Source: a virus
IMG/VR virus record: IMGVR_UViG_3300045988_112441
Strand: one strand, 5' to 3'
Length of the DNA stretch: 64,000 bases
The stretch's first letter is position 1, and every line of letters starts with the position of its first letter. Below, piece after piece: positions 11,768 through 41,257 of this stretch. The notes below the pieces were generated by a model. That model was not told where the DNA came from, did no database searches, and saw only the letters and a program-made list of their open reading frames with translations. The translations under genes and the position numbers were made by a program.

Positions 11768-13969
11768 TTAATTGTCGCTCAAATGAACCACTCGATCTCG
11801 AATTTCCTGAGTGCGCCCCTGATTCCAAAAATTGGTTCCCAGGTAACCACAAGTACGTCTTACGACATTCATTTTGTTCTGGTCACGATTACCACAATTC
11901 GGGCACTCCCATATAAGCTTGTGGTTTTTCTCATCTTCTACAATTTTAATTTCGCCGTCGTAGCCGCAGCACTGGCAGTAGTCGGACTTGGTGTTCAGCT
12001 CCGCATACATGATGTTGTCGTAAATGAACTGCATAACACTAAGCACCGCAGGAATGTTCTGCTGCAGATTTGGCACCTCGATATAGCTAATCGCCCCTCC
12101 TGGAGAAAGCTTCTGGAACTCGCTCTCAAACTTTAGCTTAGTGAAAGCATCGATATGTTCACGGACAACGACATGATAAGAATTTGTTACGTAGTCATGG
12201 TCAGTAATATCTGGAATCATACCAAACCGCTTCTGCAAGCAACGTGCAAATTCATATGTAGTGGACTCCAAAGGAGTACCATACAGAGAGTAATCGATGT
12301 TTTCAGCGGCCTTCCACTCGTTACACTTATCATTCATGTGCCGCATAATTTCGAGAGCAAAAGGTTTAGCATCAGGATCGGTGTGGCTCTTGCCGGTCAT
12401 ATACTTCACACACTCATACAGACCGGCATAACCCAGGCTGATGGTGGAGTAGCCGCCGAAGAGCAACTTGTCGATCTTCTCGCCCTTCTTTAGACGAGCT
12501 AATGCACCGTACTGCCACAGGATAGGGGCCATATCAGAAGAAGTGCCGAGTAGACGCTTGTGACGAATCTGTAGAGCTCGATGACACAATTCGAGTCGTT
12601 CATCGAAGATTTTCCAGAATTTATCCTTGTCCCCTTCTGAACTGCAAGCCACGTCCACCAGATTGATGGTCACGACGCCCTGATTGAAGCGGCCATAATA
12701 CTTATGCCCCTTAACCCAATTCTTGGCACTAGCTACGTTCTCAGTGGTGCGGTCAGGAGTAAGGAAGGATCTACAGCCCATGCTAGGCCACACACCGCCT
12801 TTAAGCTCCTTCATAACCTTTGCGGAAATATAATCAGGAACCATTCGCTTGGCAGTACACTTAGCTGCCAGCTCAGTCAGGTAATAATACTTAGAATCAG
12901 AATGAATGTTATCCTCATCAAGAGCATAAATGAGCTTTGGGAAGGCCGGAGTGACCCATACACCAACTTCATTCTTTACACCCTGAATGCGCTGTTTTAA
13001 CACTTCTTCAACAATTAGAGCCAAATCATCACGAGTTTGACCTTCTGGAACTTCATCGAGGTACATAAACACGGTGATAAAAGGGGCCTGGCCGTTTGTC
13101 GTCATCAAAGTGACAACCTGATACTGGATGGTCTGCACGCCACGAGCAATTTCTTTATGTAAACGATCTTCTACAATTCGATTGATAGTTTCAGACTCCG
13201 GCATCTTATCGATTTCATTATTCTGAACCATCTCGTAAAATTCTTGGTGTACTTCACTTGTGATCTTCTTGCGGGAAACATCTACGAATGGAGCCAGATG
13301 TGAAAGTGTAATACTCTGACCTCCAAATTGCATCGAAGCTACCTGTGCAATGATCTGGGTGGCAATGTTGCAGGCGGTGGAAAAGCTGTGAGGTTTTTCA
13401 ATATAGGTGCCGGAGATGACGGTGCCGTTCTGGAGCATATCTTCAAGATTGACCAGATCGCAATTATGGCAGTGCATCACAAAATAATCTTTATCATGCA
13501 CATGAATTAAACCACTTTTGTGTGCATCTCGGATATCCTTTGGAAGTAGAAGTCTGTCAGTTAGTTCCTTAGATACCTCTCCGGCCATGTAATCACGTTG
13601 CGTGCTATTGATGGTTGCGTTCTTATTACTGTTTTCCTGATTGATTGCGTCGTTCTGGGCATCAAGAATTTCAAGAATACTTGCGTTGGTTTTCTCTTTA
13701 TCTCGAATTTCCTGACGATACTGCCGCCACTGACTATATGCATTTGCAACGTCAATAAACGGGCTATTTGCTAGACTGTCCACTACGATATCCTGAATCT
13801 GCTCAACAGAAAGAATGCCCGGCATGTCTGCGATATAGTCAGCAATCGCATTCGACACACGAGCGTCGATACTACCCGGTGTACAGGTCATCGCCTTCTC
13901 GACTGCATTCACAATCTTACTTTTATCAAAAGGGACTTCCGTTCCATCGCGTTTAATCACATATTCCAT
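11768..13969 (-). CDS. nrdD: Anaerobic ribonucleoside-triphosphate reductase
   Basis: 733 aa. C-terminal glycyl-radical motif RRTCGYLG and a Cys-rich zinc site. Confidence 0.9.
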   Translation of the reverse strand: MEYVIKRDGTEVPFDKSKIVNAVEKAMTCTPGSIDARVSNAIADYIADMPGILSVEQIQDIVVDSLANSPFIDVANAYSQWRQYRQEIRDKEKTNASILEILDAQNDAINQENSNKNATINSTQRDYMAGEVSKELTDRLLLPKDIRDAHKSGLIHVHDKDYFVMHCHNCDLVNLEDMLQNGTVISGTYIEKPHSFSTACNIATQIIAQVASMQFGGQSITLSHLAPFVDVSRKKITSEVHQEFYEMVQNNEIDKMPESETINRIVEDRLHKEIARGVQTIQYQVVTLMTTNGQAPFITVFMYLDEVPEGQTRDDLALIVEEVLKQRIQGVKNEVGVWVTPAFPKLIYALDEDNIHSDSKYYYLTELAAKCTAKRMVPDYISAKVMKELKGGVWPSMGCRSFLTPDRTTENVASAKNWVKGHKYYGRFNQGVVTINLVDVACSSEGDKDKFWKIFDERLELCHRALQIRHKRLLGTSSDMAPILWQYGALARLKKGEKIDKLLFGGYSTISLGYAGLYECVKYMTGKSHTDPDAKPFALEIMRHMNDKCNEWKAAENIDYSLYGTPLESTTYEFARCLQKRFGMIPDITDHDYVTNSYHVVVREHIDAFTKLKFESEFQKLSPGGAISYIEVPNLQQNIPAVLSVMQFIYDNIMYAELNTKSDYCQCCGYDGEIKIVEDEKNHKLIWECPNCGNRDQNKMNVVRRTCGYLGTNFWNQGRTQEIRDRVVHLSDN

Positions 13970-13980
13970 GTAATCACCTC

Positions 13981-15504
13981 TTACTCAGCATCCTGCGCAT
14001 CGTTCTTTTCAGAAACAATCGTCGAATCGCTTACAAGGTTCACATTCTTAGTGACCTTTGCATCGTAACTGTTGGCACGGACAATTTCCTTCATATCAAT
14101 GCCAGTTGCTTCACGAACGGCCTCAAAAGTCTGAGCCATGACTGCTGGGACATTGCCGGAAATCTCAGAAACACCATTTGCGTTACTGCCAATGATGGAA
14201 ACCTTGTCAATGGACGCCAGCGGCTTTGCAACCTCAGCTGCAATGCTAGGAAGAATCTTAATGATCATTTCACCCATAGCCGCACCATTGTACTGCTTGT
14301 AAGCTTCGGCCTTCTTCAGCATAGCTTCTGCTTCAGCAAGACCCTTCTGCCTGATGGCCTCAGCTTCCGCCATGCCAACCATACGGATGCCTTCTGCCTC
14401 CTGTTCCTTAGCGAACTTTGCGGATTCTGCAGAACGCTCTGCTTCGTACTTCTTTGCTTCAGCTTCCTTCTGACGCTTATACAGGTCGGCGTCTGCCTGC
14501 TTGCGAATCTCCGCATCCAGCTTTTGCTGACGAACTTCTGCTTCCTGAGCGGCCAACTCAACCATCTTCTTCTGCTTTGCAATAGCTGCGTCAGCTTCAG
14601 CTTCCTTAATTTCCTTATCACGCAGATTCATTTGAATCTCACCAGCAGCTTCTGCATCAGCATTTGCCTTATCAGCCTCCGCCTTCAGAGCGGCCTGAGT
14701 CAGAAGATACTCATTGTTGCGCTGTGCAATAGCGGTCTTGGATTCAATTTCCTTTTCATTTGATTCACGAGCAGTATCCGCCTTAGCACGAGCAATATCA
14801 CGAGCGGCTTCGGCCTTAGCAATCTCTGCCTGTTTCTTCACCAGCTCTTCCTGCTGAACACCAATTGCCTCAATGACACCATGATTATGACCCTGAGCAT
14901 CAATAGCATCCTTAATATCCTGAACATTGAAAGTAACAACTTCCAGACCCATCTTTGCTAAATCAGGACGAGCATTCTCAACAACGGAAATTGCCATCTG
15001 TTTACGATTGGTCAGGATATCATTGACAGTCATCTCAGAAACAATCTCTCGCAGATTGCCCTGAAGGACATCGTTGATCTTTTCGTTAATGCCATCTTCA
15101 CTCATGCCAAGGAAGTTGGAAATAGCAGCCTGCTGACGAGCACTAATATAAGTCTTTGCATCCTCACAACCGGCACTCTTAATCTCATCATCAGTTACAG
15201 TAGAGTTCTCAGAGTAAACCTGAACAGTAACAACAGAGTCCAGCCACAGAGAAACACCCTCTTTAGTCTTTACACCGGTTTCAGGAGTCTTGACATCAAT
15301 CTTGAGCAATCGCATATTCAGACGGTCAGCTCGCTGAATAACCGGAAGGACGAACACGCCACGACCACAGATAACTTTCGGCTTAGACAGTCCAAAACCT
15401 GTTACGACGATTGCCTGAGTAGGAGGAGCCTTCTTATAGCAAGTAAATGCAAAGGCGATCAGAAAGACAACAACGACAGGAATTGCAATAAACATCATAT
15501 TCAT
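13981..15504 (-). CDS. Flotillin-like SPFH/band-7 membrane protein
   Basis: 507 aa. N-terminal transmembrane helix, SPFH domain, then a long AEAEA/KQKK coiled coil. Confidence 0.75.
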   Translation of the reverse strand: MNMMFIAIPVVVVFLIAFAFTCYKKAPPTQAIVVTGFGLSKPKVICGRGVFVLPVIQRADRLNMRLLKIDVKTPETGVKTKEGVSLWLDSVVTVQVYSENSTVTDDEIKSAGCEDAKTYISARQQAAISNFLGMSEDGINEKINDVLQGNLREIVSEMTVNDILTNRKQMAISVVENARPDLAKMGLEVVTFNVQDIKDAIDAQGHNHGVIEAIGVQQEELVKKQAEIAKAEAARDIARAKADTARESNEKEIESKTAIAQRNNEYLLTQAALKAEADKANADAEAAGEIQMNLRDKEIKEAEADAAIAKQKKMVELAAQEAEVRQQKLDAEIRKQADADLYKRQKEAEAKKYEAERSAESAKFAKEQEAEGIRMVGMAEAEAIRQKGLAEAEAMLKKAEAYKQYNGAAMGEMIIKILPSIAAEVAKPLASIDKVSIIGSNANGVSEISGNVPAVMAQTFEAVREATGIDMKEIVRANSYDAKVTKNVNLVSDSTIVSEKNDAQDAE

Positions 15505-15629: not shown

Positions 15630-16070
15630 TTAAAACTTGACCTCATCGGCACAATCAGGGACCACGGCAGTTTCGATGTTTGGAGCATGGATTTCTGGAC
15701 AGAAAACCAAATCATCCGTATAGTCGGGCTTTGCATGACGAGGAATGTAATCCGACATCGTAGTCAGCTTATCAGTTACCTCGTTAGGGACTTTCTTGAG
15801 CGTATCTACGACACTTTCAGCAACCTTCTGCTGTTCCTCTAAAAGCCGGATTTTATAGTCCAAATACCAACGTGCCTTCGTCAAATCTTGAAGCTGAGAA
15901 TTGCCATCTTTGTGACCTGCCCGGCTCAGATACTTACCAACATTCCAAAGATAAGCATCCTTGTCTAACTGCCACTCCCGTAGCACTTTGATTGCCTCAT
16001 AGGGATTGTCTGCACCGCCGTAATAAGACGGGTGCTCGACGTTCTTCTTGATTTCGTCAAGTGTTTGCAT
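15630..16070 (-). CDS. DUF3310-like phage protein
   Basis: HPSYYGG...NPYEAIKV...W...LWNVGKYL. Start trimmed to a Met preceded by an AAGGAGG RBS. Confidence 0.45.
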   Translation of the reverse strand: MQTLDEIKKNVEHPSYYGGADNPYEAIKVLREWQLDKDAYLWNVGKYLSRAGHKDGNSQLQDLTKARWYLDYKIRLLEEQQKVAESVVDTLKKVPNEVTDKLTTMSDYIPRHAKPDYTDDLVFCPEIHAPNIETAVVPDCADEVKF

Positions 16071-16773
16071 CAATAACCTCCTTGTTTTTTTCAATAGGCT
16101 TATAAACATCTGCCAACCGAGGATGACGGCCACAGCAGCCACGACCTTCTGGACAGAACGGATACTTCGGATTAGCCTCACAGGAAGGAACCATCCAGTT
16201 TGCTACTTCAGGACAAACCTGTGCAACTTCCTTCTTCATTTCTGTGAACATCTCGCGGATTTCTTTTTGAGCCCTAGAACAAAGTCGAAGATGACTCATC
16301 TCAATCAAAGCACGAGCGTTCATCGTGATGTAGAATTCTGTACAGCAAGCATTTGGCAGAACTGCACGAGCGTCTTCGTTTTTGGCATTATGATACTTCT
16401 TGAGAATCTGATAATCGGTATCAATGTCCGACATCATATTATCGAAAACATCAGCATCTTCACCGGTAAACGGATTTACATACTTGAATCCATCCTCGCT
16501 GCAATAACGCTGGCTGCGGCAGCTCATGCTAATATGTCGATGACGACTAATCTGTGCCAGAAGTGCGCGACTCACATCTTTGACATAGAACGTAAAGTTG
16601 ATGTGTTCAAGCACAGAATAATGACCGCTGGCCTTACATCCCTTAGCAATCTTATAATCGTCAGTCATTGAAGAATCATAACAAATACTCGCAGCTTCCT
16701 CTACAATATCTAAAGGATTCTTATCATTTGTAGGAACAACTCGCTGTGTGTACGCAATCAAATCAACAGTCAT
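16057..16773 (-). CDS. thyX: FAD-dependent thymidylate synthase
   Basis: ThyX motif: RHRHISMSCRSQRY. Confidence 0.8.
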   Translation of the reverse strand: MTVDLIAYTQRVVPTNDKNPLDIVEEAASICYDSSMTDDYKIAKGCKASGHYSVLEHINFTFYVKDVSRALLAQISRHRHISMSCRSQRYCSEDGFKYVNPFTGEDADVFDNMMSDIDTDYQILKKYHNAKNEDARAVLPNACCTEFYITMNARALIEMSHLRLCSRAQKEIREMFTEMKKEVAQVCPEVANWMVPSCEANPKYPFCPEGRGCCGRHPRLADVYKPIEKNKEVIDANT

Positions 16774-19381: not shown

Positions 19382-20695
19382 TTAGGCATAAGACACCTCG
19401 TTCTTGTCATCTCTAAATCTTACAAAGGTCGGGAATTGCAGGGACTCAGCGCCAGTTTTCTTGTCACAGCTGACCTCTTTGTATTTACACTCAACAATCT
19501 TGCCAATGTAGTCATCAGGATTCGCCCACACAGTAGCTCTCGTAGCGTCATCAAAGCCAGAGCCAATGCGTAGCTCATTACCCTTGTAGTCCACAACGAG
19601 AGCTCCCGTCGTGCCAGCCAGACGGTTCTGACCTTCCTCAATCGCGATGATTCGCAGGTCAACAGTATAAAAACGTTTTACTTTCAGGCATCCATTATGT
19701 CGTGCCCGGCGGTAAGGGACATCTCTGTTACAGACAAGTCCTTCCCAGTCATTTGCAACAGCATAATCAAGCCATTTAGCAATCTGTGAATGGTCGGTTC
19801 CTTCGTAGACCATCTCGACAACTTCAATGTTTTGAAGATTGTGCTGCTTGATTTTCTCTTTCAGCTCAAGAAGCCGCTGTTTACGAACTGAATACCGTTC
19901 AACACATTCGTCATTTTCAAACTGTCTCTGTAGAACCATATCGAAAATTACGAACTTGATGCAGCTCTTATCTGTAGAATCGCTGTTAATAATGCCTGTC
20001 CCAACAACGAAATTTTTGTTATCTGACAGACCATCGACATTCTTACGAATTAACTCTCCATCAAATACATAACCAAAATAGCCAGTATTTTTAATATCGT
20101 TGATAATGTGGTCAAGTCCAGTAAACTTTTGCGCCTGTCTGGAAATGAACTGACCATTGATAAAGGTGCCGCGCACTCCATTTAATTTGCGCGATACAAA
20201 AATCATTTCATCCCGCTTCAGTTTAACCTTGTCAATCGGATATCCCTGCTGTACCTCCCAGACAGGAACAATCTCTTCGCCGTACACCTTATTGATGGTA
20301 GCTGCCTCGACTCCGATCGGCAGGTTCTTAGTGAACAGTCGTTTCAGAAACTCTTCGTATTCAGGATTTTTATGTAAATAATTCTGGATTGTTGCGATGG
20401 ATGTATCAGAGCCTGTATTGTGACTAGCACCCATAATATAAAGGTATCCGCAGCTGAGATACTGAACATCGAAATCCGGCCTTGCGGTTACCTTCTTATT
20501 GATCTTTGCATTAGACAGGCCAGTAACAATTGCCGGGTCAAGCAGGAATCGGAAGAATGCCATTAACTCATCAGCTTCATCTCCAAAATCCTTACGTGCA
20601 TCCAGCAAAATGCGGGTCTTGTCCGTCTTTTTCTTTGCTTTCTGCAATGCCTTAACCATCGCATCAAGCTTACCTATGAGCTCTTTATCTGTCAT
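19382..20695 (-). CDS. lig: ATP-dependent DNA ligase
   Basis: 437 aa. Adenylation motif SRKLNGVRG (KxDG/KxNG), nucleotidyltransferase fold and OB-fold tail. Confidence 0.8.
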   Translation of the reverse strand: MTDKELIGKLDAMVKALQKAKKKTDKTRILLDARKDFGDEADELMAFFRFLLDPAIVTGLSNAKINKKVTARPDFDVQYLSCGYLYIMGASHNTGSDTSIATIQNYLHKNPEYEEFLKRLFTKNLPIGVEAATINKVYGEEIVPVWEVQQGYPIDKVKLKRDEMIFVSRKLNGVRGTFINGQFISRQAQKFTGLDHIINDIKNTGYFGYVFDGELIRKNVDGLSDNKNFVVGTGIINSDSTDKSCIKFVIFDMVLQRQFENDECVERYSVRKQRLLELKEKIKQHNLQNIEVVEMVYEGTDHSQIAKWLDYAVANDWEGLVCNRDVPYRRARHNGCLKVKRFYTVDLRIIAIEEGQNRLAGTTGALVVDYKGNELRIGSGFDDATRATVWANPDDYIGKIVECKYKEVSCDKKTGAESLQFPTFVRFRDDKNEVSYA

Positions 20696-20868: not shown

Positions 20869-23800
20869 TCAATGCTTTTCTGAAAATTCTTTCCGTAAAA
20901 ATTCCTTCAAGAACGTCCGCTTGTATGGCACCCTCGAAGTCTTTACAGCCCGATCAAGAGCATGAGTTTCGGCGCAAATCACACAATACTTCTTGGCACG
21001 AGTAATGGCCGTATAGAGCCATTCTCTCGTCAGCATCAGGTATGCAGAGTTGTCCATACCAACAATCACATACGGAGCCTCACTGCCCTGTAGTTTATGA
21101 CAACTTAAAGCATAAGCAAGTTCAAGCGTTGCCCAGATGTTATTCCCACCAAAGTAATGCGGAATGAAGATCGTTCCCCATTGGTCAAAATCAACCAGAA
21201 TAAAACTAGTCTCAATCTTTCGGATAATGCCACGGTTTCCGTTGAACACCGGACACTTCTCTTCCTTTTTCTTTGTCTTGAGATTGTATGTGTGAAGTTC
21301 ATAATTGTTCTTGTTGATAATGACTTGATCGCCCTCACGCAGAGTATACACTCTATCCTTGCCATCACCATAGATTGTGACCTTTGCTTCTGCTTGACCA
21401 CGACTCGGATTCACAATTTCCTGAATAGCATTATTGACTTCATAAGTACAGATACTACCACGCAGCTTCTGTGGAAGTACAATCTGAATCTTCGCACTAT
21501 CATTCCCTACCTTATTATATAAGGTACGGTACTGATTGATGATGTGATTGAATGACTCACTTGCATCTTTATAGATATCAAGCTCCAAATCACGAAGTTC
21601 ACCACGAATCTCACTACCAGCCCAGCCATAAGGCACCAATTGCGTAGCATTGCGAACCTTGATGCTCTCCGTGATAATTGCAGACTTAGCTGCCTGACGA
21701 TGGATCTTAGTCAACCGAGCCACAGGAACAACCTTAGATGCAAGCATATCCTTGAAAATGTTACACATACCGATGCTCTCAAGCTGTCCGTCATCACCAA
21801 TCATGATGAATCGCTTTCCGGTCTCGATTGCCTGAATCAAGTCATAGAACAACTGAGCTCCAACCATAGATGTCTCATCCAGAATGATAATATCTTCTTC
21901 AAGAGGATTGTCCTTGTTATGAATGAAACCACCATTCTCAATATCATAACCAAGAAGACGATGAATGGTCTTCCCGTCCTGACCAGTAATCTCCTGCATA
22001 CGAGCTGCGGCACGTCCAGAGAGTGCAGTCTGAGCGAAAGACTTACCGTGAAGGACCTTTAGAACACCAGCGACAACGGTACTTTTACCGGTGTTGCCTG
22101 TGACACAAATTCTTCCATTATATCTTATCAGAAACATATGAGACGGAACCGTAAAACAATACTTATATCCATCGCTTGAACGAACAATATCAATATCGCT
22201 TTTACTGCCTTTTGTCATAAGAGAAACTTTTCCATTCGAGTGTTGCACAATATGAACATTATACTCTGTGACCATTCTACCGTGCCGTTCAATATTTGAT
22301 TCATGTACAACAGAACGATAACCACAAGAAGAAAATGCGAACTGAACAAAATCTGCCGTTTCTTTAATCAGTGTACTAAAATCTTTCCGTCTCCCCTCTT
22401 TTACGTGACCGTCCCAATTTAGAATCTCATCGCAAATCACCTCTAGCTGATGATGATTACAGCTATACCAATACGAAGTAAATCTTTTTTCTTTTCTTGG
22501 AGCATAAAAGACAAAGTTCGAATATTCCAAGTCTTTTGGATTCCACTGATGCTCATCAAAGTATCTACCACTTTCCAAAAGAAGTCTTCTCATGCGAAGT
22601 TTCTTTCGCTCTTTTTTTACGTTTACTCTACACCAAGCTGATTTATGATCCTTCAAAAACGACCCATCGCAAATAACAGCACACATTAGTCTAATATCAG
22701 CATCGCTCAAATCGATTCCTGGACCATCATAATTGAACGTTGTTATAAAATGTCCGTTAAACCCAGACTTTCGTTTAACATTTCTTTGATACAACTCCCA
22801 CATTGGGATTTTAGCTAAATTGTTTTTGCTGGTCAAGTAAACAACATTATGCTCTGCACTCAATAGTTGATTGATACTGCCCGACTTGTTTTTCATGTGA
22901 TATAGATATTCACATTTAAATTTTACATATTTCTCAGGCTCAACAAGCGTTGTAGTCCCATTTTCATTATATTGAAGAACTTTGTCGCCCTTAACATAAT
23001 CTTTTATTTTTTTCCATTGGATACCATTAAAGAACTCCATCTCTGCATCAAGGCATCCGCCGTAACCTGTTAAGATACAGACGTTGCTAGAGCATACCTT
23101 TTTAATAGCATCTCTCTGCTCTTCAGTGTACTCGATACCAAGTTCATCCTCGGCCTCATTGATTGTTGCATCCATATTTCGACCAATCGGCTCAACAGGA
23201 ACATCCGCCAGACGCTTGATTTCCTTCGCAATACTATCTTCCAGATTCCACACTCTAGTTAAAGCAAATTCCTGACGGTCATCGCTCCACCAAAGCGTTT
23301 CACGAGCATCATGCAAATGGAAAAGTGCCCTTTTGATGACTTCTTGGTCACCCTCATTCAAATCAAGTTCCTTAATACAGCTATTGATTGTCTGGTTTGC
23401 CGAGATGATAGAGTTGCCTTCTTCGGCACGGCCAGCAAGAAAGTGCATGACGTAAGCTTCAATTCTAAATTGCGAATTGTGTTTCAACCCCATATTCAGA
23501 GCTAGAGCGTCAGCCTTCTTCCAGCCGATGCCATACACATCGTCAATCAGGACGTAAGGATTCTCTTCAATCTTTCTCACCAGAGTGTCTGCACCATGAT
23601 ATTGACGGACAAGCTTTTCAATAGCACTAGGGGTCAGACCGTACTCAATTAGCTTTGTGTACGCATCACTGTTATCAATGTTGTTTTCATAAGTATCAAT
23701 GATCTTTTGAGCTCTGCCTTCCGTAATACCACTAACAGTGCAAAGCGACTTGATATCACCATTCTTGATAATCTCATACGGATTTTCGAATGCTTCATAA

Positions 23801-24162
23801 AGTATCTCAAACTGATGGTCGGTCAGGATATAATGGAGAAAGCTTTTCTGTTCTTCCGGGTCAGTAATCTCTTGAAACTCATTCATATAAATGATTTTAT
23901 ACTGGTCACCAAACTTTTCATGATGAACATACTCACCACAGAACGAATAAGTTTTATTCATATCGAGGCTAGGAACGTTGCCCTTTAACCGGAGGTCACT
24001 GTATCGACTCATAACAGGATTTCCCTGCTTGACTTTTACCACCTCGGCAGAGAAAGTGGCGAAGCCGCCGGGCTCCACCTCCCTCCCATCTTTCGGATAA
24101 AAGACTCGTTTTATCCTGATGTAGCAACGGATCATATTTTCATTGAATTTTTTATCTGCCAC
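20869..24162 (-). CDS. RecD-like SF1 DNA helicase with an intein in the Walker A P-loop
   Basis: 1097 aa. N-terminal HhH-like domain. GYGG|C...intein...N|TGKST. Helicase motifs DETSMV, IMIGDDGQL, HKLQGSEA, ITRAKK. Confidence 0.8.
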   Translation of the reverse strand: MADKKFNENMIRCYIRIKRVFYPKDGREVEPGGFATFSAEVVKVKQGNPVMSRYSDLRLKGNVPSLDMNKTYSFCGEYVHHEKFGDQYKIIYMNEFQEITDPEEQKSFLHYILTDHQFEILYEAFENPYEIIKNGDIKSLCTVSGITEGRAQKIIDTYENNIDNSDAYTKLIEYGLTPSAIEKLVRQYHGADTLVRKIEENPYVLIDDVYGIGWKKADALALNMGLKHNSQFRIEAYVMHFLAGRAEEGNSIISANQTINSCIKELDLNEGDQEVIKRALFHLHDARETLWWSDDRQEFALTRVWNLEDSIAKEIKRLADVPVEPIGRNMDATINEAEDELGIEYTEEQRDAIKKVCSSNVCILTGYGGCLDAEMEFFNGIQWKKIKDYVKGDKVLQYNENGTTTLVEPEKYVKFKCEYLYHMKNKSGSINQLLSAEHNVVYLTSKNNLAKIPMWELYQRNVKRKSGFNGHFITTFNYDGPGIDLSDADIRLMCAVICDGSFLKDHKSAWCRVNVKKERKKLRMRRLLLESGRYFDEHQWNPKDLEYSNFVFYAPRKEKRFTSYWYSCNHHQLEVICDEILNWDGHVKEGRRKDFSTLIKETADFVQFAFSSCGYRSVVHESNIERHGRMVTEYNVHIVQHSNGKVSLMTKGSKSDIDIVRSSDGYKYCFTVPSHMFLIRYNGRICVTGNTGKSTVVAGVLKVLHGKSFAQTALSGRAAARMQEITGQDGKTIHRLLGYDIENGGFIHNKDNPLEEDIIILDETSMVGAQLFYDLIQAIETGKRFIMIGDDGQLESIGMCNIFKDMLASKVVPVARLTKIHRQAAKSAIITESIKVRNATQLVPYGWAGSEIRGELRDLELDIYKDASESFNHIINQYRTLYNKVGNDSAKIQIVLPQKLRGSICTYEVNNAIQEIVNPSRGQAEAKVTIYGDGKDRVYTLREGDQVIINKNNYELHTYNLKTKKKEEKCPVFNGNRGIIRKIETSFILVDFDQWGTIFIPHYFGGNNIWATLELAYALSCHKLQGSEAPYVIVGMDNSAYLMLTREWLYTAITRAKKYCVICAETHALDRAVKTSRVPYKRTFLKEFLRKEFSEKH
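22093..23055 (-). mobile_element. Intein (about 321 aa) with a LAGLIDADG-type homing endonuclease domain, inside the helicase P-loop
   Basis: The host P-loop reads ILTGYGG-[CLDAEM...VTGN]-TGKST. Intein starts with Cys and ends with Asn followed by Thr. Internal LMCAVICDGSF and FAFSSCGY motifs. Confidence 0.7.
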
Positions 24163-24174
24163 TTTATAACCCTC

Positions 24175-27100
24175 TTACGCTATCTCTCTATCATGCAGCC
24201 ACTGCTTATAAGGCTTCATCTTCTCAACAATGTACGAATTTTCTTTTCTCTTGCAAAGGATTGCAAGATCGTTACCCTTTGAAATCAGACTTGAATATCG
24301 TGCATACTGAGATGCCCAACAAATCATTTCGACAATACCACCTGTCGTGTAAACATGTAAGTACGCAAACTGGTTGCCACGTTTATCCTTCTTTTTTTGG
24401 ATATCTACGATGACACAAATAGCAGTTGCCTTACCGCCATCCTCTACAGTATCAAGACCAGCATCAATATAGGTGCAAGCATCCTTAATGGGATTGCTAG
24501 TCAAAAACATTGAAAGAGTTTCAAATTCCCACATGTGCTCGTCTTGCATATACTTTTCAGCAAACGCCTGCATAAATGCATTCCGCTTTTTGTCTTTTTC
24601 TTTCTTTCGATTCCATGTGCCCGCTTCCCAGCGCTCCCTTCTTACCTTATTATATAAGGCAAGTCTGGTTGGTTTGTCTTTAACAGAGTCCGTATCAATG
24701 CCGTATTCGTCTTTAAGAATGGAAATCTTAGGGAGAGACGCCATCTCATGGAATCCTTTCTCTTTATACTCATTCTCAAAAACCATATTTGCAAAAGTGA
24801 TTAAGATTTTTTTCTTATCCTTTGTCGGGATAGCGCCAGCCTTAATCAACTTGACAACATTTGAGGTTCCAATCTTACCACCGTTTGCTCTCTGAACAAA
24901 GTCTGCCAGTCCAGAATATGGACGGTCTGCAATCACTCCTGAAGCGACACTCTCACCCATTCCCTTAATGGCTTTCAAACCAAACAGGATTGTGTGCTTT
25001 TCCGCATCAGCCTTAAATTCCATATCAGACTTGTTGACACTTGGAGGAAGGACACGAATATGTAGACGGTCGCATTCGTTGATAAACACACCCATTTTGC
25101 CAGAATCGTCTTCCTTGGTAATCATACACGCAGCCATGAAATACTCAGTATAATGAGTTTTCAGGTAAGCCGTCAGGTAAGAAAGAAGTCCATACGCAAC
25201 TGCGTGGCCTCTATTAAAGGAATAAGAAGCCTGCTTCAAGATTAGTGCCCACATCTCAGAAATCTGGTAATCATTCCATCCTTTCTTGTGAAGACCATCT
25301 CGGAACTGAACTTCCAAGGATGCCATAACATCTTTCTTTTTCTTGCCGATAGCACGACGAGCATTGTCAACCTCAGTTTCAGGGAATCCTGCATAGCGGA
25401 ATACCGCTAGTGCCTGTTCCTGATAAAGAAGAATGTATTGCGTCTTAGCAAAAAGCTGTTTGATGTCAGGATGGAGTAGTTTGATAGTCTCTGGATGAAG
25501 TTTATTGGAGCAATACGTCGGGAAGCTGTCCTTAGTACCAGGACGATTCGCTGCGTTCACAACAATGATATCCTCAGCATTATCGCACTTTGCTTCAACA
25601 CACATCTTTCGTGCTTCTGCAGATTCCATCTGGAAAATGCCAATTGTGTTGCCCGACTTGTAGACGGTATCATAGACAGCCTTATCACTTAGATCAAGAT
25701 GGTTGATATCGACATCTTCCCATGTTAATCCAGCCATCTTTAACGTATCGTCAATAATGTCCAGATTCTCAAGACCAAGGAAGTCCATCTTGACCAGCGA
25801 CAAATCATCCATGGCATTGTGCATCTCAAGTTGGCACATCTGATTGCCTTCTCTGTCCATACAAAGAGGACAATATTCAATGACAGGCTTGGGCGTAATC
25901 AATGTACCGGCAGCATGGCGACCCATACTCTTAGGCAGACCCTCAAGACGCATAACGTATTTGAACCATAGAGGAAACTTGTCATATACATTAGAAAGCT
26001 GTTCACTCTTTCCGAGGATATCCTTTAGTAGAACTTCCTTTTCAACTTCTTCGCCAAGATCATCCAGCGTTTTTACAGTCGGAATTAACTTGGCGACCTC
26101 ATTACGTAATTCATACGGAATCTGCATATAATACGGGCTTTCTGGGTCTTCGTTCAGAACTTTGCCAATATCTTTGATGGCAACTTTTGTAGACAAAGAG
26201 TTAAACGTAGCGATAGGAGCAACATTTTCTTTGCCGAAAAGTTCTTCTGCAATAGCAATAAGTTCCTTTCGACGACGTTTAGAGACATCGAAGTCGAAGT
26301 CGGCCAGGCTCTTTCTACCTTTGTTTGCAAAGCGAGAGAAGTCAAGATCCCAACGAACAGAGTCAATCTGAGTAACATTCTCCATAAAAAGGCAAAGACA
26401 ATTTGCGCCAGAACCACGAGAGTACCCACGAGGAATTTTGCGTTCATCAGCCTTTTTGCAAAGCATATACAGCATAATGAAATAGTCAATATAATCAACA
26501 TACTTCAAAACATCCAGTTCCATCTCAATACGATTCCGCCGGGTTTGCTGTTCCACTTCACTCATCCACCCGAATTTTTTATTAAAAGTGGCATATACAA
26601 GGTGCCGAAGATAATCAAAATGAGAATCAAATTTTCCCTCAATTTTCACTTCTGGCATCTGGTTCGGCTGTCCAAGACCGATATCGATATCATCAATCAT
26701 GTCTGCGATTTTCACAGACATCTCACAGCCTTTTTTGATAAAGTCCTCATCAAACTGCTTTGATAGCGTTCTCAAAACATCGTTTTCAGTCTGAAGATAG
26801 CAGTCAACGTAGCTTTCACCAACTTCTCGGCCTTCTCCAATCTCAACAAAGACAGAGTGTGCATCAATATCTTCTTTAGAAAGCATGTGAGCATCGGTCG
26901 TAATGGTATACGGCAAGTCGTATTTCCTAATAAACGCCGCAATTTTTGCATTGGCCTCAGCTTGATCTGGCGTATCATGTGACTGTACTTCCATAAACAC
27001 GTCATCAAAGATCCATTCCAGTTTGTTCCATAACTGCCATGCTTCAGTCTCGTTGCCATCAACAAGTAATCTACTCATTCGACCAACTTGACAGGCTGTA

Positions 27101-27519
27101 AGACAGATGATACCTTTACCCCACTCGTTCTGTTCAATAATGTTCAAAGAAGTTCGAGGCTTTTTATACATACCATCAACGCAAGCATTTGAAACAATCT
27201 TAAATAGATTTTTTAAACCGGTCTCGTTCTTTGCTAGTAAAACAAGATGGTAACGAGGTTGTTTATAGTCTTTTGTATCGGCTTTCTCTGCCTGATTATC
27301 TACTTCATAGACTTCACAGCCGATGATAGGCTTAATACCTGCTTCCTTGCAAGCCTTAACTTGGTCAACAAAAGAGTGCATTTTTCCGTGGTCTGTAACC
27401 GCGATTGCTTTCTGGCCATTTTCTTTGGCAAAGTTTACAAGTTCCTTGACGGTAAGAATAGAGTCAAGTAACGAACCCTGCGCTGTATGTACATGAAGAT
27501 TTACAAAATTATCTGACAT
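24175..27519 (-). CDS. dnaE: DNA polymerase III alpha subunit
   Basis: 1114 aa. N-terminal PHP domain (HVHTAQGSLLD...VTDHG), polymerase core and OB domain. GGAGG RBS. Confidence 0.9.
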   Translation of the reverse strand: MSDNFVNLHVHTAQGSLLDSILTVKELVNFAKENGQKAIAVTDHGKMHSFVDQVKACKEAGIKPIIGCEVYEVDNQAEKADTKDYKQPRYHLVLLAKNETGLKNLFKIVSNACVDGMYKKPRTSLNIIEQNEWGKGIICLTACQVGRMSRLLVDGNETEAWQLWNKLEWIFDDVFMEVQSHDTPDQAEANAKIAAFIRKYDLPYTITTDAHMLSKEDIDAHSVFVEIGEGREVGESYVDCYLQTENDVLRTLSKQFDEDFIKKGCEMSVKIADMIDDIDIGLGQPNQMPEVKIEGKFDSHFDYLRHLVYATFNKKFGWMSEVEQQTRRNRIEMELDVLKYVDYIDYFIMLYMLCKKADERKIPRGYSRGSGANCLCLFMENVTQIDSVRWDLDFSRFANKGRKSLADFDFDVSKRRRKELIAIAEELFGKENVAPIATFNSLSTKVAIKDIGKVLNEDPESPYYMQIPYELRNEVAKLIPTVKTLDDLGEEVEKEVLLKDILGKSEQLSNVYDKFPLWFKYVMRLEGLPKSMGRHAAGTLITPKPVIEYCPLCMDREGNQMCQLEMHNAMDDLSLVKMDFLGLENLDIIDDTLKMAGLTWEDVDINHLDLSDKAVYDTVYKSGNTIGIFQMESAEARKMCVEAKCDNAEDIIVVNAANRPGTKDSFPTYCSNKLHPETIKLLHPDIKQLFAKTQYILLYQEQALAVFRYAGFPETEVDNARRAIGKKKKDVMASLEVQFRDGLHKKGWNDYQISEMWALILKQASYSFNRGHAVAYGLLSYLTAYLKTHYTEYFMAACMITKEDDSGKMGVFINECDRLHIRVLPPSVNKSDMEFKADAEKHTILFGLKAIKGMGESVASGVIADRPYSGLADFVQRANGGKIGTSNVVKLIKAGAIPTKDKKKILITFANMVFENEYKEKGFHEMASLPKISILKDEYGIDTDSVKDKPTRLALYNKVRRERWEAGTWNRKKEKDKKRNAFMQAFAEKYMQDEHMWEFETLSMFLTSNPIKDACTYIDAGLDTVEDGGKATAICVIVDIQKKKDKRGNQFAYLHVYTTGGIVEMICWASQYARYSSLISKGNDLAILCKRKENSYIVEKMKPYKQWLHDREIA

Positions 27520-29524: not shown

Positions 29525-31249
29525 TCAAATCACCTCAAAATCAACAATCTGCGCCTGCGGAGTAACTTTGTTTCCGTACTGATTTAAAGACAACCGGCAT
29601 ACAGCATTGATGTATTTTTCTTCCTGATCACCATAGAAGTCATTATTGATCCAGCCAATCATCCGGCCATTATCTGCAAAGCACACAAAATCAATGCCTT
29701 TTTCTTCATCAGAATACTTCCACATATTGCCGTTCTTGCCCATCGGAGCACATCCACTATGAATCAGCGGAATATTTTTAATGTAGAAATATGGCTCTGA
29801 GATTCCCTGTGCCCAGATTTTATGCATTTCATACATGGTCTTCGGCAATGCAACAGTCAGCCTACTATAGTCAAAATCAAAGTCAACCACGATTGCTTTG
29901 CTCATCGTGACATCTTTAAGCAGCTCATTACAATCCGCAATCGCCTTTGGCACGTTTTCTTTCTTGATTTTCACACCAGCAGCATTATCATGACCAAGAA
30001 CTGACTCAAAATCTCCGGTACTCATCAGGAACTCCTTTAAACTTTCAATCGGAGAGCCGTCAGGATTTCTCATTGAACCACCGTAATAGTCCGGTTCATC
30101 AGCAAAAGTACGAAGCAATACGCACGGTTTTGCATACATTTCGGCCAGCTTGATTGCCACAACACCAGTCAGAGTGTTATCAAGAATGCCAGTGGAGTTG
30201 CAGAAGAGAATCTTATTCTGGTCTGCACCATGCTTTTCAATCAGTTCCTGCAACTCTGCAACAGCCTTATCCTTAGTTTTGTTTTGCTGATATTTACAAG
30301 AAGAACACTCACGAGCTACATGCTGCGCCAGAGTCTCATCAATCGTGATACCGGCATTCTTGCCACGAGTCGGAGTGTACTGGAACGTCTGTTCCTCACC
30401 GACCATCGCACGGAACATCCGCTTCTTCTGCTCGGATGAGCCAACACGAATCAGTGCGTTCATCATCGGAACGACGTAGAATTGAACATCATTGATAGTC
30501 GGGTCACCCTTGATGTTGAAGCTATTCGCCTCAACCAAAGCACAAATCATCGGATTTACAATTCGTGCCAGACCTTTCGTGCAAATGCGCTTTGTCTCAT
30601 GCGAGTGCATATCCATGACATCACCGATGTTTCCAACAGCCACCAGATCAAGATACCGGTCTGCAACATCAGTCCAATTATCCTCATCAACAGCCTGAAG
30701 GAACTTATATACCACGCCAGCACCAGACAGTTCCTTGTTAGGATATGTACCATTCTGGTTATTGACGATTACTGCGTAAGGATTCTCTCTGTCGCAGATG
30801 TGATGGTCAAGAATCAGAATATCGATGCCCTTATCACGAAGTTCCTTGCATTGCTCAACATCGTTACTGCCAGCGTCAGGAATAATCAGCAGAGTGGTTT
30901 CAGGTGGAACTTCGATTTCTTTAGAGAGTCCATGTTCCTTACCACTATGATGCAGAACATTGATTTTTCCAAAATAACCAATCGCCTTCAGGTACTGGAA
31001 CATCATTGAGGCACTTGTGAAACCATCCACATCACAGTCTACAAGGATAGAGATGATAGATTTTTTCCAAAGGTGTTTATTCAACATCATGACAGCATAC
31101 TCGATATTGTCCAATTCCCACGGAGAATTCAAGCAAGAATCATCCAGATTCATGTAGGTCTTATAATCCTTGACCCCTCTGTTCTCCATAATCGTTCCAA
31201 TCGGGTCTGATAGGTCGTTCCTACTCCCCTTCCAGAGTTTTACATTCAT
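29525..31249 (-). CDS. DHH-family RecJ-like ssDNA exonuclease
   Basis: DCDVDG and ILDHH motifs; 574 aa. Confidence 0.7.
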   Translation of the reverse strand: MNVKLWKGSRNDLSDPIGTIMENRGVKDYKTYMNLDDSCLNSPWELDNIEYAVMMLNKHLWKKSIISILVDCDVDGFTSASMMFQYLKAIGYFGKINVLHHSGKEHGLSKEIEVPPETTLLIIPDAGSNDVEQCKELRDKGIDILILDHHICDRENPYAVIVNNQNGTYPNKELSGAGVVYKFLQAVDEDNWTDVADRYLDLVAVGNIGDVMDMHSHETKRICTKGLARIVNPMICALVEANSFNIKGDPTINDVQFYVVPMMNALIRVGSSEQKKRMFRAMVGEEQTFQYTPTRGKNAGITIDETLAQHVARECSSCKYQQNKTKDKAVAELQELIEKHGADQNKILFCNSTGILDNTLTGVVAIKLAEMYAKPCVLLRTFADEPDYYGGSMRNPDGSPIESLKEFLMSTGDFESVLGHDNAAGVKIKKENVPKAIADCNELLKDVTMSKAIVVDFDFDYSRLTVALPKTMYEMHKIWAQGISEPYFYIKNIPLIHSGCAPMGKNGNMWKYSDEEKGIDFVCFADNGRMIGWINNDFYGDQEEKYINAVCRLSLNQYGNKVTPQAQIVDFEVI

Positions 31250-40383: not shown

Positions 40384-40464
40384 TGGTGGGACATGTCGGA
40401 CTTGAACCGTGATACATATGCTCAGTTATGAGCTGAGTTCTCTAACCAATTGAGATAATGTCCC
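40384..40464 (-). tRNA. tRNA-Met/Ile2 (anticodon CAT), atypical
   Basis: Perfect acceptor (GGGACAT/ATGTCCC), D-arm and anticodon arm (CTCAG-CTCATAA-CTGAG), and an encoded CCA. The variable region is about 9 nt and the T-stem has only 3 bp (mismatches at 49:65 and 50:64). Confidence 0.45.
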
Positions 40465-40653
40465 ATAAAAACCAGTTAAATAGCTGCAACTATTCAACTG
40501 GGCACCTTCCTTATAAAACACTATTGCATCTATATCATATAGACGAGGAAGGAATAACAGCGATGCACATTTCCTATATCTCGCCCCTTTCGGGGTGGTA
40601 TCTCGCACAGGCGCGGCCGGATCTGACCGCCAAAGATCCTACCCATACGAGAT

Positions 40654-40728
40654 TGGAGCAGCGAAAGGTAGTCGAAACCTCATCCTCAGCTTGGAAGGCT
40701 GATGTACTAGCCGTTGTACGACCGCCGC
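40654..40728 (-). tRNA. tRNA-Gly (anticodon TCC) with a G3:U70 pair
   Basis: Full cloverleaf: acceptor GCGGCGG/TCGCTGC with G3:U70 and G7:U66, D-arm GTAC-AACGGCTA-GTAC, anticodon loop CTTCCAA, T-arm GAGGT-TTCGACT-ACCTT, U73 and CCA. Confidence 0.6.
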
Positions 40729-40831
40729 ATGAAAACCCAGCTTACAAAACACTACTGCACCATCACTGGCGAGCTGGGAATAATAGTGGTCAAAGGATAT
40801 CAACAAACGGTACGCAACCATTCTATGACCG

Positions 40832-40916
40832 TGGTGCCACAGGCGAGACTCAAACTCGCAAGCCTTTCGGCGTCTACCCCTAAAATAGATGTGTAGGTCA
40901 ATTCCACCACTGTGGC
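40832..40916 (-). tRNA. tRNA-Leu (anticodon TAG), class II
   Basis: 85 nt. Acceptor GCCACAG/CTGTGGC, anticodon stem TCTAT/GTAGA, loop TTTAGGG, variable arm CGCCGAAAGGCTT, T-arm GCGAG-TTTGAGT-CTCGC, A73 and CCA. Confidence 0.65.
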
Positions 40917-40923
40917 ATATAAA

Positions 40924-40997
40924 TTGCGCCGGAAAGAATCGAACTTTCGCAATCGGGACTTCAAAGGACCCTGCCTTAACCGCTTGGCTACGACGCA
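40924..40997 (-). tRNA. tRNA-Gln (anticodon TTG)
   Basis: Acceptor TGCGTCG/CGGCGCA, Gln-like D-arm GCCAAGCGGTTAAGGC, anticodon loop CTTTGAA with a U:U mismatch in the stem, T-arm GAAAG-TTCGATT-CTTTC. No encoded CCA. Confidence 0.6.
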
Positions 40998-41093
40998 TTA
41001 TATACTTGGCTTGCTGTGTCCTATTGCTCCATTTTTGGAGAGCCAAGAATAATAGGAAAGGTATTTTATGAAAAGCATGTTGGGAAACCAACT

Positions 41094-41166
41094 GGTCGAA
41101 AACGTCAGATTTGAACTGCAACTCCTGCTCCCAAAGCAGGCGTGTTACCATTACACCACGTTCTCG
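41094..41166 (-). tRNA. tRNA-Pro (anticodon TGG), atypical
   Basis: C1:G72 acceptor (CGAGAAC/GTTTTCG), A73 and CCA. Anticodon arm CCTGC-TTTGGGA-GCAGG. One extra nucleotide at positions 8-9, and a weak T-stem. Confidence 0.5.
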
Positions 41167-41169
41167 ATA

Positions 41170-41257
41170 TGGTGCCGCAGGTGGGATTCAAACCCACGAT
41201 CCATATTTCAGGCGTCCCGGTTTAAGCGGGAAATGTATGTCACTCCATCACTGCGGC
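41170..41257 (-). tRNA. tRNA-Leu (anticodon TAA), class II-like
   Basis: 88 nt. Acceptor GCCGCAG/CTGCGGC, anticodon stem TCCCG/CGGGA, loop CTTAAAC, 17-nt variable region, T-arm GTGGG-TTTGAAT-CCCAC, A73 and CCA. Confidence 0.5.

Follow-up and report, generated by a model that had tools for sequence, protein, structure and literature searches.

In a 64,000-nucleotide stretch of virus DNA (IMG/VR record IMGVR_UViG_3300045988_112441; the whole stretch is called the window below), the gene for a phage RecD2-type helicase is interrupted within its Walker A loop by what is very probably a mobile intein, a HINT splicing domain that is itself interrupted by a double-motif LAGLIDADG homing endonuclease. 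Inteins in the P-loops of nucleoside triphosphatases (NTPases) are a classic case, and this is another genuine, intact and recently mobile one, not a new kind of element. It is mildly noteworthy in that it is invisible to curated models, has left a clean homing footprint, and combines Cys1 with a class 3 triad, with the AceL intein as its closest solved relative.

The insert, its fold and its family

The precursor gene, the two exteins and the parts of the insert are as follows:

20869..24162, minus strand: precursor gene, a RecD2/YrrC-type superfamily 1B (SF1B) helicase plus the predicted intein; a single continuous open reading frame of 1097 residues with a GTG start
23056..24162, minus strand: N-extein, residues 1-369, ending ...ILTGYGG, the first half of Walker A; placed by end-to-end alignment with the intein-free P0040/L002
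22093..23055, minus strand: predicted intein, 321 residues, Cys1 to Thr319-Gly320-Asn321
22741..23055, minus strand: predicted HINT N-terminal part (intein residues 1-105), with block A CLDAEMEFF and block B S66-A-E-H69; model beta-strands 7-84
22243..22740, minus strand: predicted LAGLIDADG homing endonuclease domain (intein residues ~106-271), two alpha-beta-beta-alpha-beta-beta halves
22657..22704, minus strand: LAGLIDADG motif 1, DADIRLMCAVICDGSF, with the putative catalytic Asp130; model helix 118-130
22402..22455, minus strand: LAGLIDADG motif 2 (corrected, see below), HHQLEVICDEILNWDGHV, with the putative catalytic Asp215; model helix 201-215
22093..22242, minus strand: predicted HINT C-terminal part (intein residues 272-321), with block F YKYC300FTVPSH306MFLIR311 and block G NGRICVT319-G320-N321; strands 276-320
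20869..22092, minus strand: C-extein, residues 691-1097 plus stop, starting Thr+1-GKST, the second half of Walker A

Read codon by codon, the insert comprises 963 nucleotides, or precursor residues 370-690. At its N-terminal junction GGT TAC GGC GGA is followed by TGC CTT GAT (GYGG/CLD), with the TGC of Cys1 at 23053-23055 in reverse complement; at its C-terminal junction ACA GGC AAC is followed by ACC GGT AAA AGT ACC (TGN/TGKST), with the AAC of Asn321 at 22093-22095 in reverse complement. These codons agree with the initial annotation, which had placed a 321-residue insert at 22093-23055 in the arrangement GYGG/C...N/TGKST, with a Cys start, an Asn end followed by Thr, and a penultimate Gly; taking the insert out restores GYGGTGKST. 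The splice-junction set of this copy consists of C1, H69 (block B), N321 and T+1. Its penultimate residue (position G:6) is Gly320, the usual His being absent, and the His position of block F is occupied by His306. From C300 to N321 there are 21 residues, a C-terminal spacing that Msm and Mle DnaB share (PMC5222942). Neither a stop nor a frameshift interrupts the 963 nucleotides.

Does the same helicase exist without the insert? When the spliced 776-residue sequence was used as the query of a homologue search, it retrieved P0040, a protein of 776 residues (the predicted spliced length) that is 95% identical over 100% of the query, has 2046 member sequences, and contains no insertion: its P-loop is a contiguous GLGGCGKST and reads, across the site, AIVTGLGGCGKSTVV. 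The same search found P0039 (1097 residues, 97% identical, 348 member sequences), which carries the intein. The intein-free contig L002 is shorter by exactly 963 nucleotides than both the window and the intein-carrying contig L003, and its empty site around the junction reads ATCGTCACAGGTCTTGGTGGA/TGCGGCAAAAGTACCGTTGTC. Because a natural 776-residue allele lacks exactly these 963 nucleotides, the split P-loop is not a product of chance. The P-loop is likewise contiguous in P0041, P0049 and P0054 (54-82% identical), so that the alignment to intein-free homologues that had been proposed as a check turned up no insertion at the site in any of these three or in P0040. P0039 and P0082 are the only ones of the 120 best-matching helicase clusters with enough length for an insert. 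In P0082 (1077 residues) the site is occupied by a family member that is 51% identical to the window's intein and likewise followed by Thr+1, in exteins that are 50% identical (55% in the homologue search).

Judged by its domains, the host protein is a RecD2/YrrC-type SF1B helicase. On the spliced sequence, Pfam finds OB_YrrC, HHH_RecD2, AAA_30/AAA_19, SH3_13 and UvrD_C_2, in that order, and the RecD2/YrrC SF1B domain order OB - HHH - 1A (Walker A/B) - SH3 - 2A/UvrD_C is present. The AAA_30 match rises from 94 to 116 bits once the insert is removed, and it then spans the junction. The TIGR01448 RecD2 match (8.8e-139) is broken at residues 369/691, and the unspliced protein scores 463.8 bits in this model, the cutoff of which is 500; the precursor also matches PHROG 4412 (exonuclease V) at 7e-171. 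A megablast search of the whole gene against GenBank phages gave no match, and hence the gene is without a close cultured relative there; the closest cultured relatives of the helicase, those of Thomasclavelia and Enterocloster phages, are 24-37% identical. For annotation purposes, this helicase is best described as an intein-containing precursor with a 776-residue mature product.

The fold of the insert was predicted with AlphaFold2 from a 16-sequence alignment of the insert and its relatives (A1), giving a model with a predicted local distance difference test score (pLDDT) of 93.0 and a predicted template modelling score (pTM) of 0.91. In this model a beta-rich segment (residues 1-105) is followed by helices 118-130 and 149-161, then by helices 201-215 and 231-243, and finally by five C-terminal strands (276-320). 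The N- and C-terminal segments form a HINT fold, the intervening domain has the pseudo-dimeric alpha-beta-beta-alpha-beta-beta fold, and the predicted architecture is HINT-N, double LAGLIDADG domain, HINT-C. A Foldseek comparison with the PDB places endonuclease-bearing inteins at the top (TliVMA at 1.2e-15, PI-SceI at 5.6e-13, PI-PfuI at 7.8e-13, then PhoVMA and PI-TkoII), with I-DmoI and I-Tsp061I lower down at about 1e-5. In profile searches of PDB sequences, made with the family profile and with a HINT-only alignment from which the endonuclease was deleted (A2), the AceL NrdHF intein was the sole match (E 1e-6); the 39-residue C-terminal peptide gave only chance glycosidase matches against the PDB.

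Both LAGLIDADG helices end in an acidic residue followed by Gly. The first reads DADIRLMCAVICD130-G, and the initial annotation had correctly picked out LMCAVICDGSF as one of two LAGLIDADG-like blocks. Its other block, FAFSSCGY, was misplaced: the second helix is HHQLEVICDEILNWDG (residues 201-216, with D215), and the second motif is HHQLEVICDEILNWD215-G, including EILNWDGH. FAFSSCGY (residues 239-246) falls in helix 231-243, which is the second helix of the C-terminal half-domain, and has no conserved acidic residue; across 179 relatives the position of its Cys244 is variable (C/L/T/I/S/V) and never acidic.

WhiA-type LAGLIDADG domains are among the structural matches, and group I introns are frequent in phage genes. 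Could the insert be something other than an intein, either a nested DNA-binding LAGLIDADG/WhiA-like domain that the helicase uses or a group I intron that is in frame and encodes an endonuclease? We consider this exceedingly improbable, given that a complete HINT fold, with Cys1, Asn321 and Thr+1, surrounds the LAGLIDADG domain and that identical modules occur in unrelated proteins. As for an intron, the frame is open throughout, and Rfam finds neither an intron nor any other RNA family within 20869..24162.

The intein reading gains further support from the relatives of the insert. The insert was searched against 5.8 billion proteins and GenBank phages, and a family profile against 1.84 billion cluster representatives; the profile matched 9985 proteins at E<=1e-3 (the best 150 of these 9985 were listed), 5341 at 1e-10 and 1169 (50%-identity clusters) at 1e-30. 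The family is very large and phage-borne, and most of its members lie in Walker A loops of NTPases that are unrelated to one another. Full-length relatives, 40-51% identical (40-47% in the searches with the insert) and with the same ends, sit inside unrelated proteins: terminase large subunits, deoxynucleoside monophosphate (dNMP), guanylate and deoxynucleoside kinases, DnaC-like loaders, PhoH, DnaB/primase-helicases, a type II secretion system (T2SS) ATPase, RecD-like helicases and RtcB ligases. Similarity begins at the Cys (C-V-D-x-x-T-E-F/Y-F) and ends at [IV]-T-[GK]-N, with the first half of Walker A before it and [S/C/T]-G-K-[S/T] after it. Fixed ends in unrelated hosts mark a discrete, host-independent module. 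We also considered whether the T-G-N/S-G-K-S junction itself mimics a Walker A motif and rejected the idea, as the spacing does not fit GxxxxGK[ST]. A RecD2-like helicase length and insertion position were found in 79 of the 173 full-length representatives examined. Within the 64-kb window, the family hidden Markov model finds no second copy of the intein. Taken with the empty allele and the predicted HINT and double LAGLIDADG fold, these relatives in unrelated hosts support the original proposal of an intein with a LAGLIDADG domain in the Walker A loop of a RecD-like helicase.

Conservation in the family was counted over 179 members, and the +1 residue over 178 full-length members. Position 1 is Cys in 177/179. 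In block B, Ser, Cys or Thr at B:7 and His at B:10 (H69) are each found in all 179, and B:12 is V/I/C/L/F/M, never Trp (Val71 in the window). The first LAGLIDADG motif has Asp130 in 175, and the second has W214 in 179, D215 in 174 and G216 in 172. Block F has Cys F:4 (C300) in 178 and Arg311 in 178, and its His position is Gly in 92, His in 52 and Ser in 21. Block G has Thr G:5 (T319) in 168, Gly G:6 in 168 (His in 4) and Asn G:7 (N321) in 178. The +1 residue is Cys in 99, Ser in 67 and Thr in 11, together 177/178. The window copy retains every invariant family residue and has two oddities, namely Met6, which is Thr in 176/179, and Thr+1, the rarest +1 residue. One member, P0287 (345 residues), is free-standing: it starts M/GVDCQTEYF, has Phe at F:4 and ends FISGD/GNIN. 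With Cys1, Cys F:4 and the terminal Asn all gone, it looks like an intein turned stand-alone LAGLIDADG protein.

How do existing libraries describe these proteins? The sole library match of the insert is PHROG 32482, annotated 'PhoH-like', of which positions 76-405 (of 589) align with the whole insert at 6e-47. This 'PhoH-like phosphate starvation-inducible' profile is evidently built from intein-bearing PhoH proteins and consists largely of intein sequence, so that intein-bearing proteins, this helicase included, receive a strong 'PhoH-like' match. Misleading names are thereby spread to unrelated proteins, and standard domain libraries miss the intein family entirely. Of the 16 aligned sequences, 8 match Pfam LAGLIDADG_3 (PF14528; best E 4.7e-6), the window copy not among them, and one of the 16 reaches Pfam Intein_splicing (E 0.0094). 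An intein annotation is absent in all 180 GenBank phage records that the intein matched.

Signs of recent homing

Among phages with about 92% nucleotide identity in the helicase gene, some carry the intein and others lack it. When the window is compared with the intein-free L002, substitutions are dense in a short tract at the junction:

23059..23088, minus strand: upstream dense-substitution tract, extein codons -11 to -2; 7/10 codons differ from L002 (SNVCILTGYG versus NNIAIVTGLG)
22087..22092, minus strand: downstream tract, codons +1/+2; ACC GGT (Thr-Gly) versus TGC GGC (Cys-Gly) in the intein-free allele

Beyond this tract, divergence between the window and L002 is back at background level, and the tract is common to both intein-carrying contigs, the window and L003. 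The flank in the window resembles those of more distant helicases, for example P0049, which reads SSNVCILTGFGGTGKT. We read the junction tract as what co-conversion from a foreign donor would leave behind in homing. The flanks of P0082, SS-x-V-x-I-x-TGFGG, resemble the junction tract of the window, and P0082 is a plausible representative of the donor-lineage type for the window's intein.

A further indication comes from synonymous divergence (dS). Between the window and L003, dS is 0.061 in the intein as compared with 0.31 in the N-extein and 0.35 in the C-extein, i.e. about five-fold lower in the intein, in a comparison that rests on small counts (11 synonymous and 8 non-synonymous substitutions in the intein). 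The lower value implies that the intein postdates the divergence of its carrier genes. The ratio of non-synonymous to synonymous divergence (dN/dS) of the intein between the two is 0.17. Base composition differs as well: GC content at third codon positions (GC3) is 31.5% in the intein versus 43-45% in the exteins, and the GC content of the intein ranks in the bottom 6% of segments of its size. In Enterocloster phage PMBT24, the intein is 43% identical to that of the window and the exteins just 24%.

From these population data we infer that the intein is, or recently was, mobile. In a co-infection, the intein would cut intein-free alleles at the Walker A site by means of Asp130 and Asp215, and repair would copy the intein together with a few flanking codons. 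With filled and empty sites, a junction tract and a young intein, this appears to be a clean natural case of ongoing homing among uncultivated phages, whose hosts are probably anaerobes. The mycobacteriophage class 1 inteins without a penultimate His and the P-loop terminase inteins show a 'classic' preference for NTPase P-loops, and their presence or absence varies among related phages (Kelley et al. 2016, PMC5050341).

Splicing chemistry and relation to known inteins

Translation of the gene gives a 1097-residue precursor with a broken ATP-binding loop, GYGG/TGKST. The two HINT halves would then fold together, excise the 321 residues and join GYGG to TGKST, yielding a 776-residue helicase whose layout is that of the natural intein-free alleles. 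Most likely, this proceeds by a class 1 route that starts at Cys1: an N-to-S acyl shift at Cys1, aided by Ser66 and His69 of block B, would be followed by transfer of the N-extein to Thr+1, whereupon Asn321 would cyclise and release the intein. We prefer class 1 because the family hardly ever departs from Cys1, while genuine class 3 inteins show drift at position 1. What, then, is the role of Cys300? In YKYCFTVPS it aligns with the Asp F:4 position of class 1 (VFDLTVPG in Ssp DnaB), and in a class 1 route it would occupy the place of that usual Asp. In an intein that lacks both the penultimate and the conserved block F His, cyclisation of Asn321 would have to be assisted in some other way, with the invariant Arg311 as the best candidate and His306 as a further possibility in this allele.

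A class-3-type route deserves to be weighed at this point. In such a route Cys300 (F:4), activated by His69 and Thr319, would attack the N-terminal junction, forming a block F branched thioester that passes to Thr+1, and Cys1 would be dispensable or act as a relay or redox switch. The near-invariance of the triad (C300 in 178/179, H69 in 179/179, T319 in 168/179) speaks for this route, as do the Ser or Thr at +1 typical of class 3 (PMC5222942) and the relative P0249 (480 residues), which begins with Gly1 (NGSG/GVDCDTEFF) yet retains Cys F:4, T-G-N and Cys+1. The sisters of P0249 (P0019, P0022 and P0023) have Cys1, and P0249 is either an operational class 3 intein or a dead or erroneous copy. 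The working definition of class 3, however, is the lack of an N-terminal nucleophile together with a WCT triplet (PMC2807308, PMC5222942, PMC7891396). The window copy has Cys F:4 and Thr G:5, but it has Cys at position 1 and Val71 where the class 3 Trp B:12 would be. Cys1 in 177/179 members is not what one expects of class 3, in which position 1 is by definition no required nucleophile and is variable (PMC2807308, PMC7891396), and Cys at +1, found in 99/178 members, is rare in class 3. Moreover, Cys F:4 also occurs in a polyphyletic set of class 1 inteins (PMC3196547, citing Tori and Perler 2011), so that by itself it does not imply class 3. On balance we regard the class-3-type route as unlikely, though not negligibly so.

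The likeness to AceL NrdHF-1-1 (PDB 6zgq) also belongs on the class 3 side of this balance. AceL, which comes from a putative phage contig, was shown by Hoffmann et al. (2020) to be a class 3 intein, if an atypical one. It has Ala1, Ser65 (B:7), His68 (B:10), Met70 (B:12), Cys124 (F:4), a Pro128-Gly129 kink and Thr144-Gly145-Asn146; it splices efficiently without either C-terminal His, and the change G145H is inactivating (PMC7891396). At about 18% identity, it and the window family share a Ser-x-x-His block B with Ser at B:7, a non-Trp hydrophobic residue at B:12, Cys F:4 followed by x-x-x-Pro-Gly/Ser (Cys-x-x-x-Pro-Gly in the block F of AceL), a C-terminal Thr-Gly-Asn, and the lack of the F:13 and G:6 His pair (PMC7891396); the matching residues in the window are S66, H69, V71, C300-F-T-V-P304-S305 and T319-G320-N321. 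The two differ in that AceL has Ala1 and proven use of Cys F:4, whereas the window family has Cys1 in 177/179. AceL also occurs naturally as two separate halves, a free-standing GIY-YIG endonuclease gene lying between them, and resides in the ribonucleotide reductase subunit NrdF, while the window intein is contiguous, carries a LAGLIDADG domain and occupies a helicase P-loop.

It is conceivable, if rather doubtful, that the family bridges the two classes, with Cys300 already acting as a nucleophile or relay nucleophile so that a member can do without Cys1, as AceL does and P0249 perhaps does. Were this so, the family would bear on the disputed origin of class 3, by divergence from class 1 or by convergence from a protease (PMC7664689); the same study argues against simple divergence of class 3 from class 1. 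Whatever the route, the family suits the question of whether class 1 and class 3 chemistry can coexist, and it may be a source of new splicing tools. Its thousands of compact T-G-N-ending members with Cys1 and Cys F:4, and with C/S/T at +1, provide a set for studying Asn cyclisation without either His.

Could the insert instead be a decayed intein that no longer splices, with the helicase of this phage inactive or dispensable? Met6 in place of Thr and the uncommon Thr+1 of the window's allele would fit, and decayed phage inteins exist, for example Arth_1007 (PMC3196547). Yet all invariant family residues are intact in the window copy, 963 nucleotides run without stop or frameshift, the intein dN/dS given above is 0.17 between two intein-carrying phages, and the cluster of the intein-carrying allele has 348 member sequences. 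Met6 is shared with the 97.5%-identical intein of P0039 and is hence a lineage trait, not a private lesion. A P-loop NTPase split by 321 residues in its Walker A motif cannot bind ATP. We therefore judge decay to be very unlikely and return to an intein that splices, most likely by the class 1 route.

Several points nevertheless weigh against this account. Searched alone, the insert matches no Pfam family at E<=1, and its one NCBIfam match, YcgN at 17 bits, is noise; phmmer, run with the insert as a single sequence against PDB sequences, likewise gives no match. The Pfam search for Hint and LAGLIDADG_3 that the initial annotation had suggested is one of these negatives, and it had named absence of Hint-domain similarity as grounds for abandoning the idea; since that similarity becomes visible only through structure and a family profile, this ground, taken literally, would wrongly reject the finding. 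Met6 and Thr+1 might leave a slow or conditional splicer. The choice of Cys1 over Cys300 as the first nucleophile rests solely on the conservation of Cys1, and the counts behind the dS comparison are, as noted, small.

Among other known inteins, the endonuclease-bearing class 1 group of PI-SceI (Sce VMA1), PI-PfuI, PI-TkoII/PkoII and TliVMA/PhoVMA share with the window intein the order HINT-N, double LAGLIDADG, HINT-C, along with Cys1, the terminal Asn, a +1 nucleophile and insertion in an ATPase or at a conserved site, at 11-14% identity for the PI-SceI/PI-PfuI/VMA group. These VMA and archaeal inteins differ in having Asp F:4 and a His-Asn C-terminus, and several have extra DNA-recognition regions, whereas the window intein is a compact 321 residues, has Cys F:4 and ends in Gly-Asn. 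Like it, the class 1 inteins of mycobacteriophages that lack the penultimate His (for example that of the Bethlehem gp51 recombination directionality factor (RDF), with a penultimate Gly) and the P-loop terminase inteins are phage-borne, with LAGLIDADG and Gly G:6, and those of the Bethlehem gp51 type splice well with that penultimate Gly (PMC5050341). Their carriers are actinobacteriophages. TerL1-a is inserted between the Walker Lys and Thr, while insertion in the window family is one residue upstream of G-K-[ST]. In common with that family, canonical class 3 inteins (MP-Be DnaB, Msm/Mch DnaB-1, Dra Snf2) have Cys F:4, Thr G:5 and His B:10, and they are mostly associated with phages and helicases, most with LAGLIDADG (PMC7891396), but they have Trp B:12, usually His G:6, and no required N-terminal nucleophile. 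Closest in setting is the 'exodeoxyribonuclease V' of PMBT24 (OQ326496.2, WDQ45496.1), together with CB457/CB473: these contain full-length members of the same family (43-46%) at the same Walker A site of a RecD-like helicase beside DNA polymerase III alpha. The PMBT24 intein differs in its length (331 residues), its +1 Cys and its distant exteins, and the record does not annotate it as an intein. Inteins in P-loops and in RecD, PhoH, RtcB, DnaB and terminase proteins have been catalogued (PMC4760082, PMC5050341).

Genomic surroundings

All large open reading frames of the window are on the minus strand, and the helicase lies in a replication module that comprises a primase-like protein, RecJ, a metallophosphatase, DNA polymerase III alpha, the helicase, a ligase, ThyX, an SPFH/flotillin protein and NrdD. 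The located neighbours are:

29525..31249: RecJ
24175..27519, minus strand: DNA polymerase III alpha, directly upstream of the helicase (1208-4552 in L003)
19382..20695, minus strand: ATP-dependent DNA ligase, downstream of the helicase
16057..16773, minus strand: ThyX
13981..15504, minus strand: SPFH/flotillin-like protein
11768..13969, minus strand: anaerobic ribonucleotide reductase NrdD with ATP-cone
40387..41257, minus strand: five transfer RNA (tRNA) genes (Rfam, gathering threshold)

The presence of NrdD, the SPFH/flotillin protein and ThyX suggests a strictly anaerobic host, probably a gut Firmicutes. In the intein-free L002 (5333-6000), the shared upstream neighbours, DUF7446 and a 107-residue open reading frame, are separated from the helicase by just a 76-residue open reading frame, where the window and L003 have DNA polymerase III alpha; this difference is an indel of a gene module between phages that are otherwise about 92% identical. 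The DNA ligase also varies in length, with 437 residues in the window and L003 and 468 residues in L002 (8412-9818).

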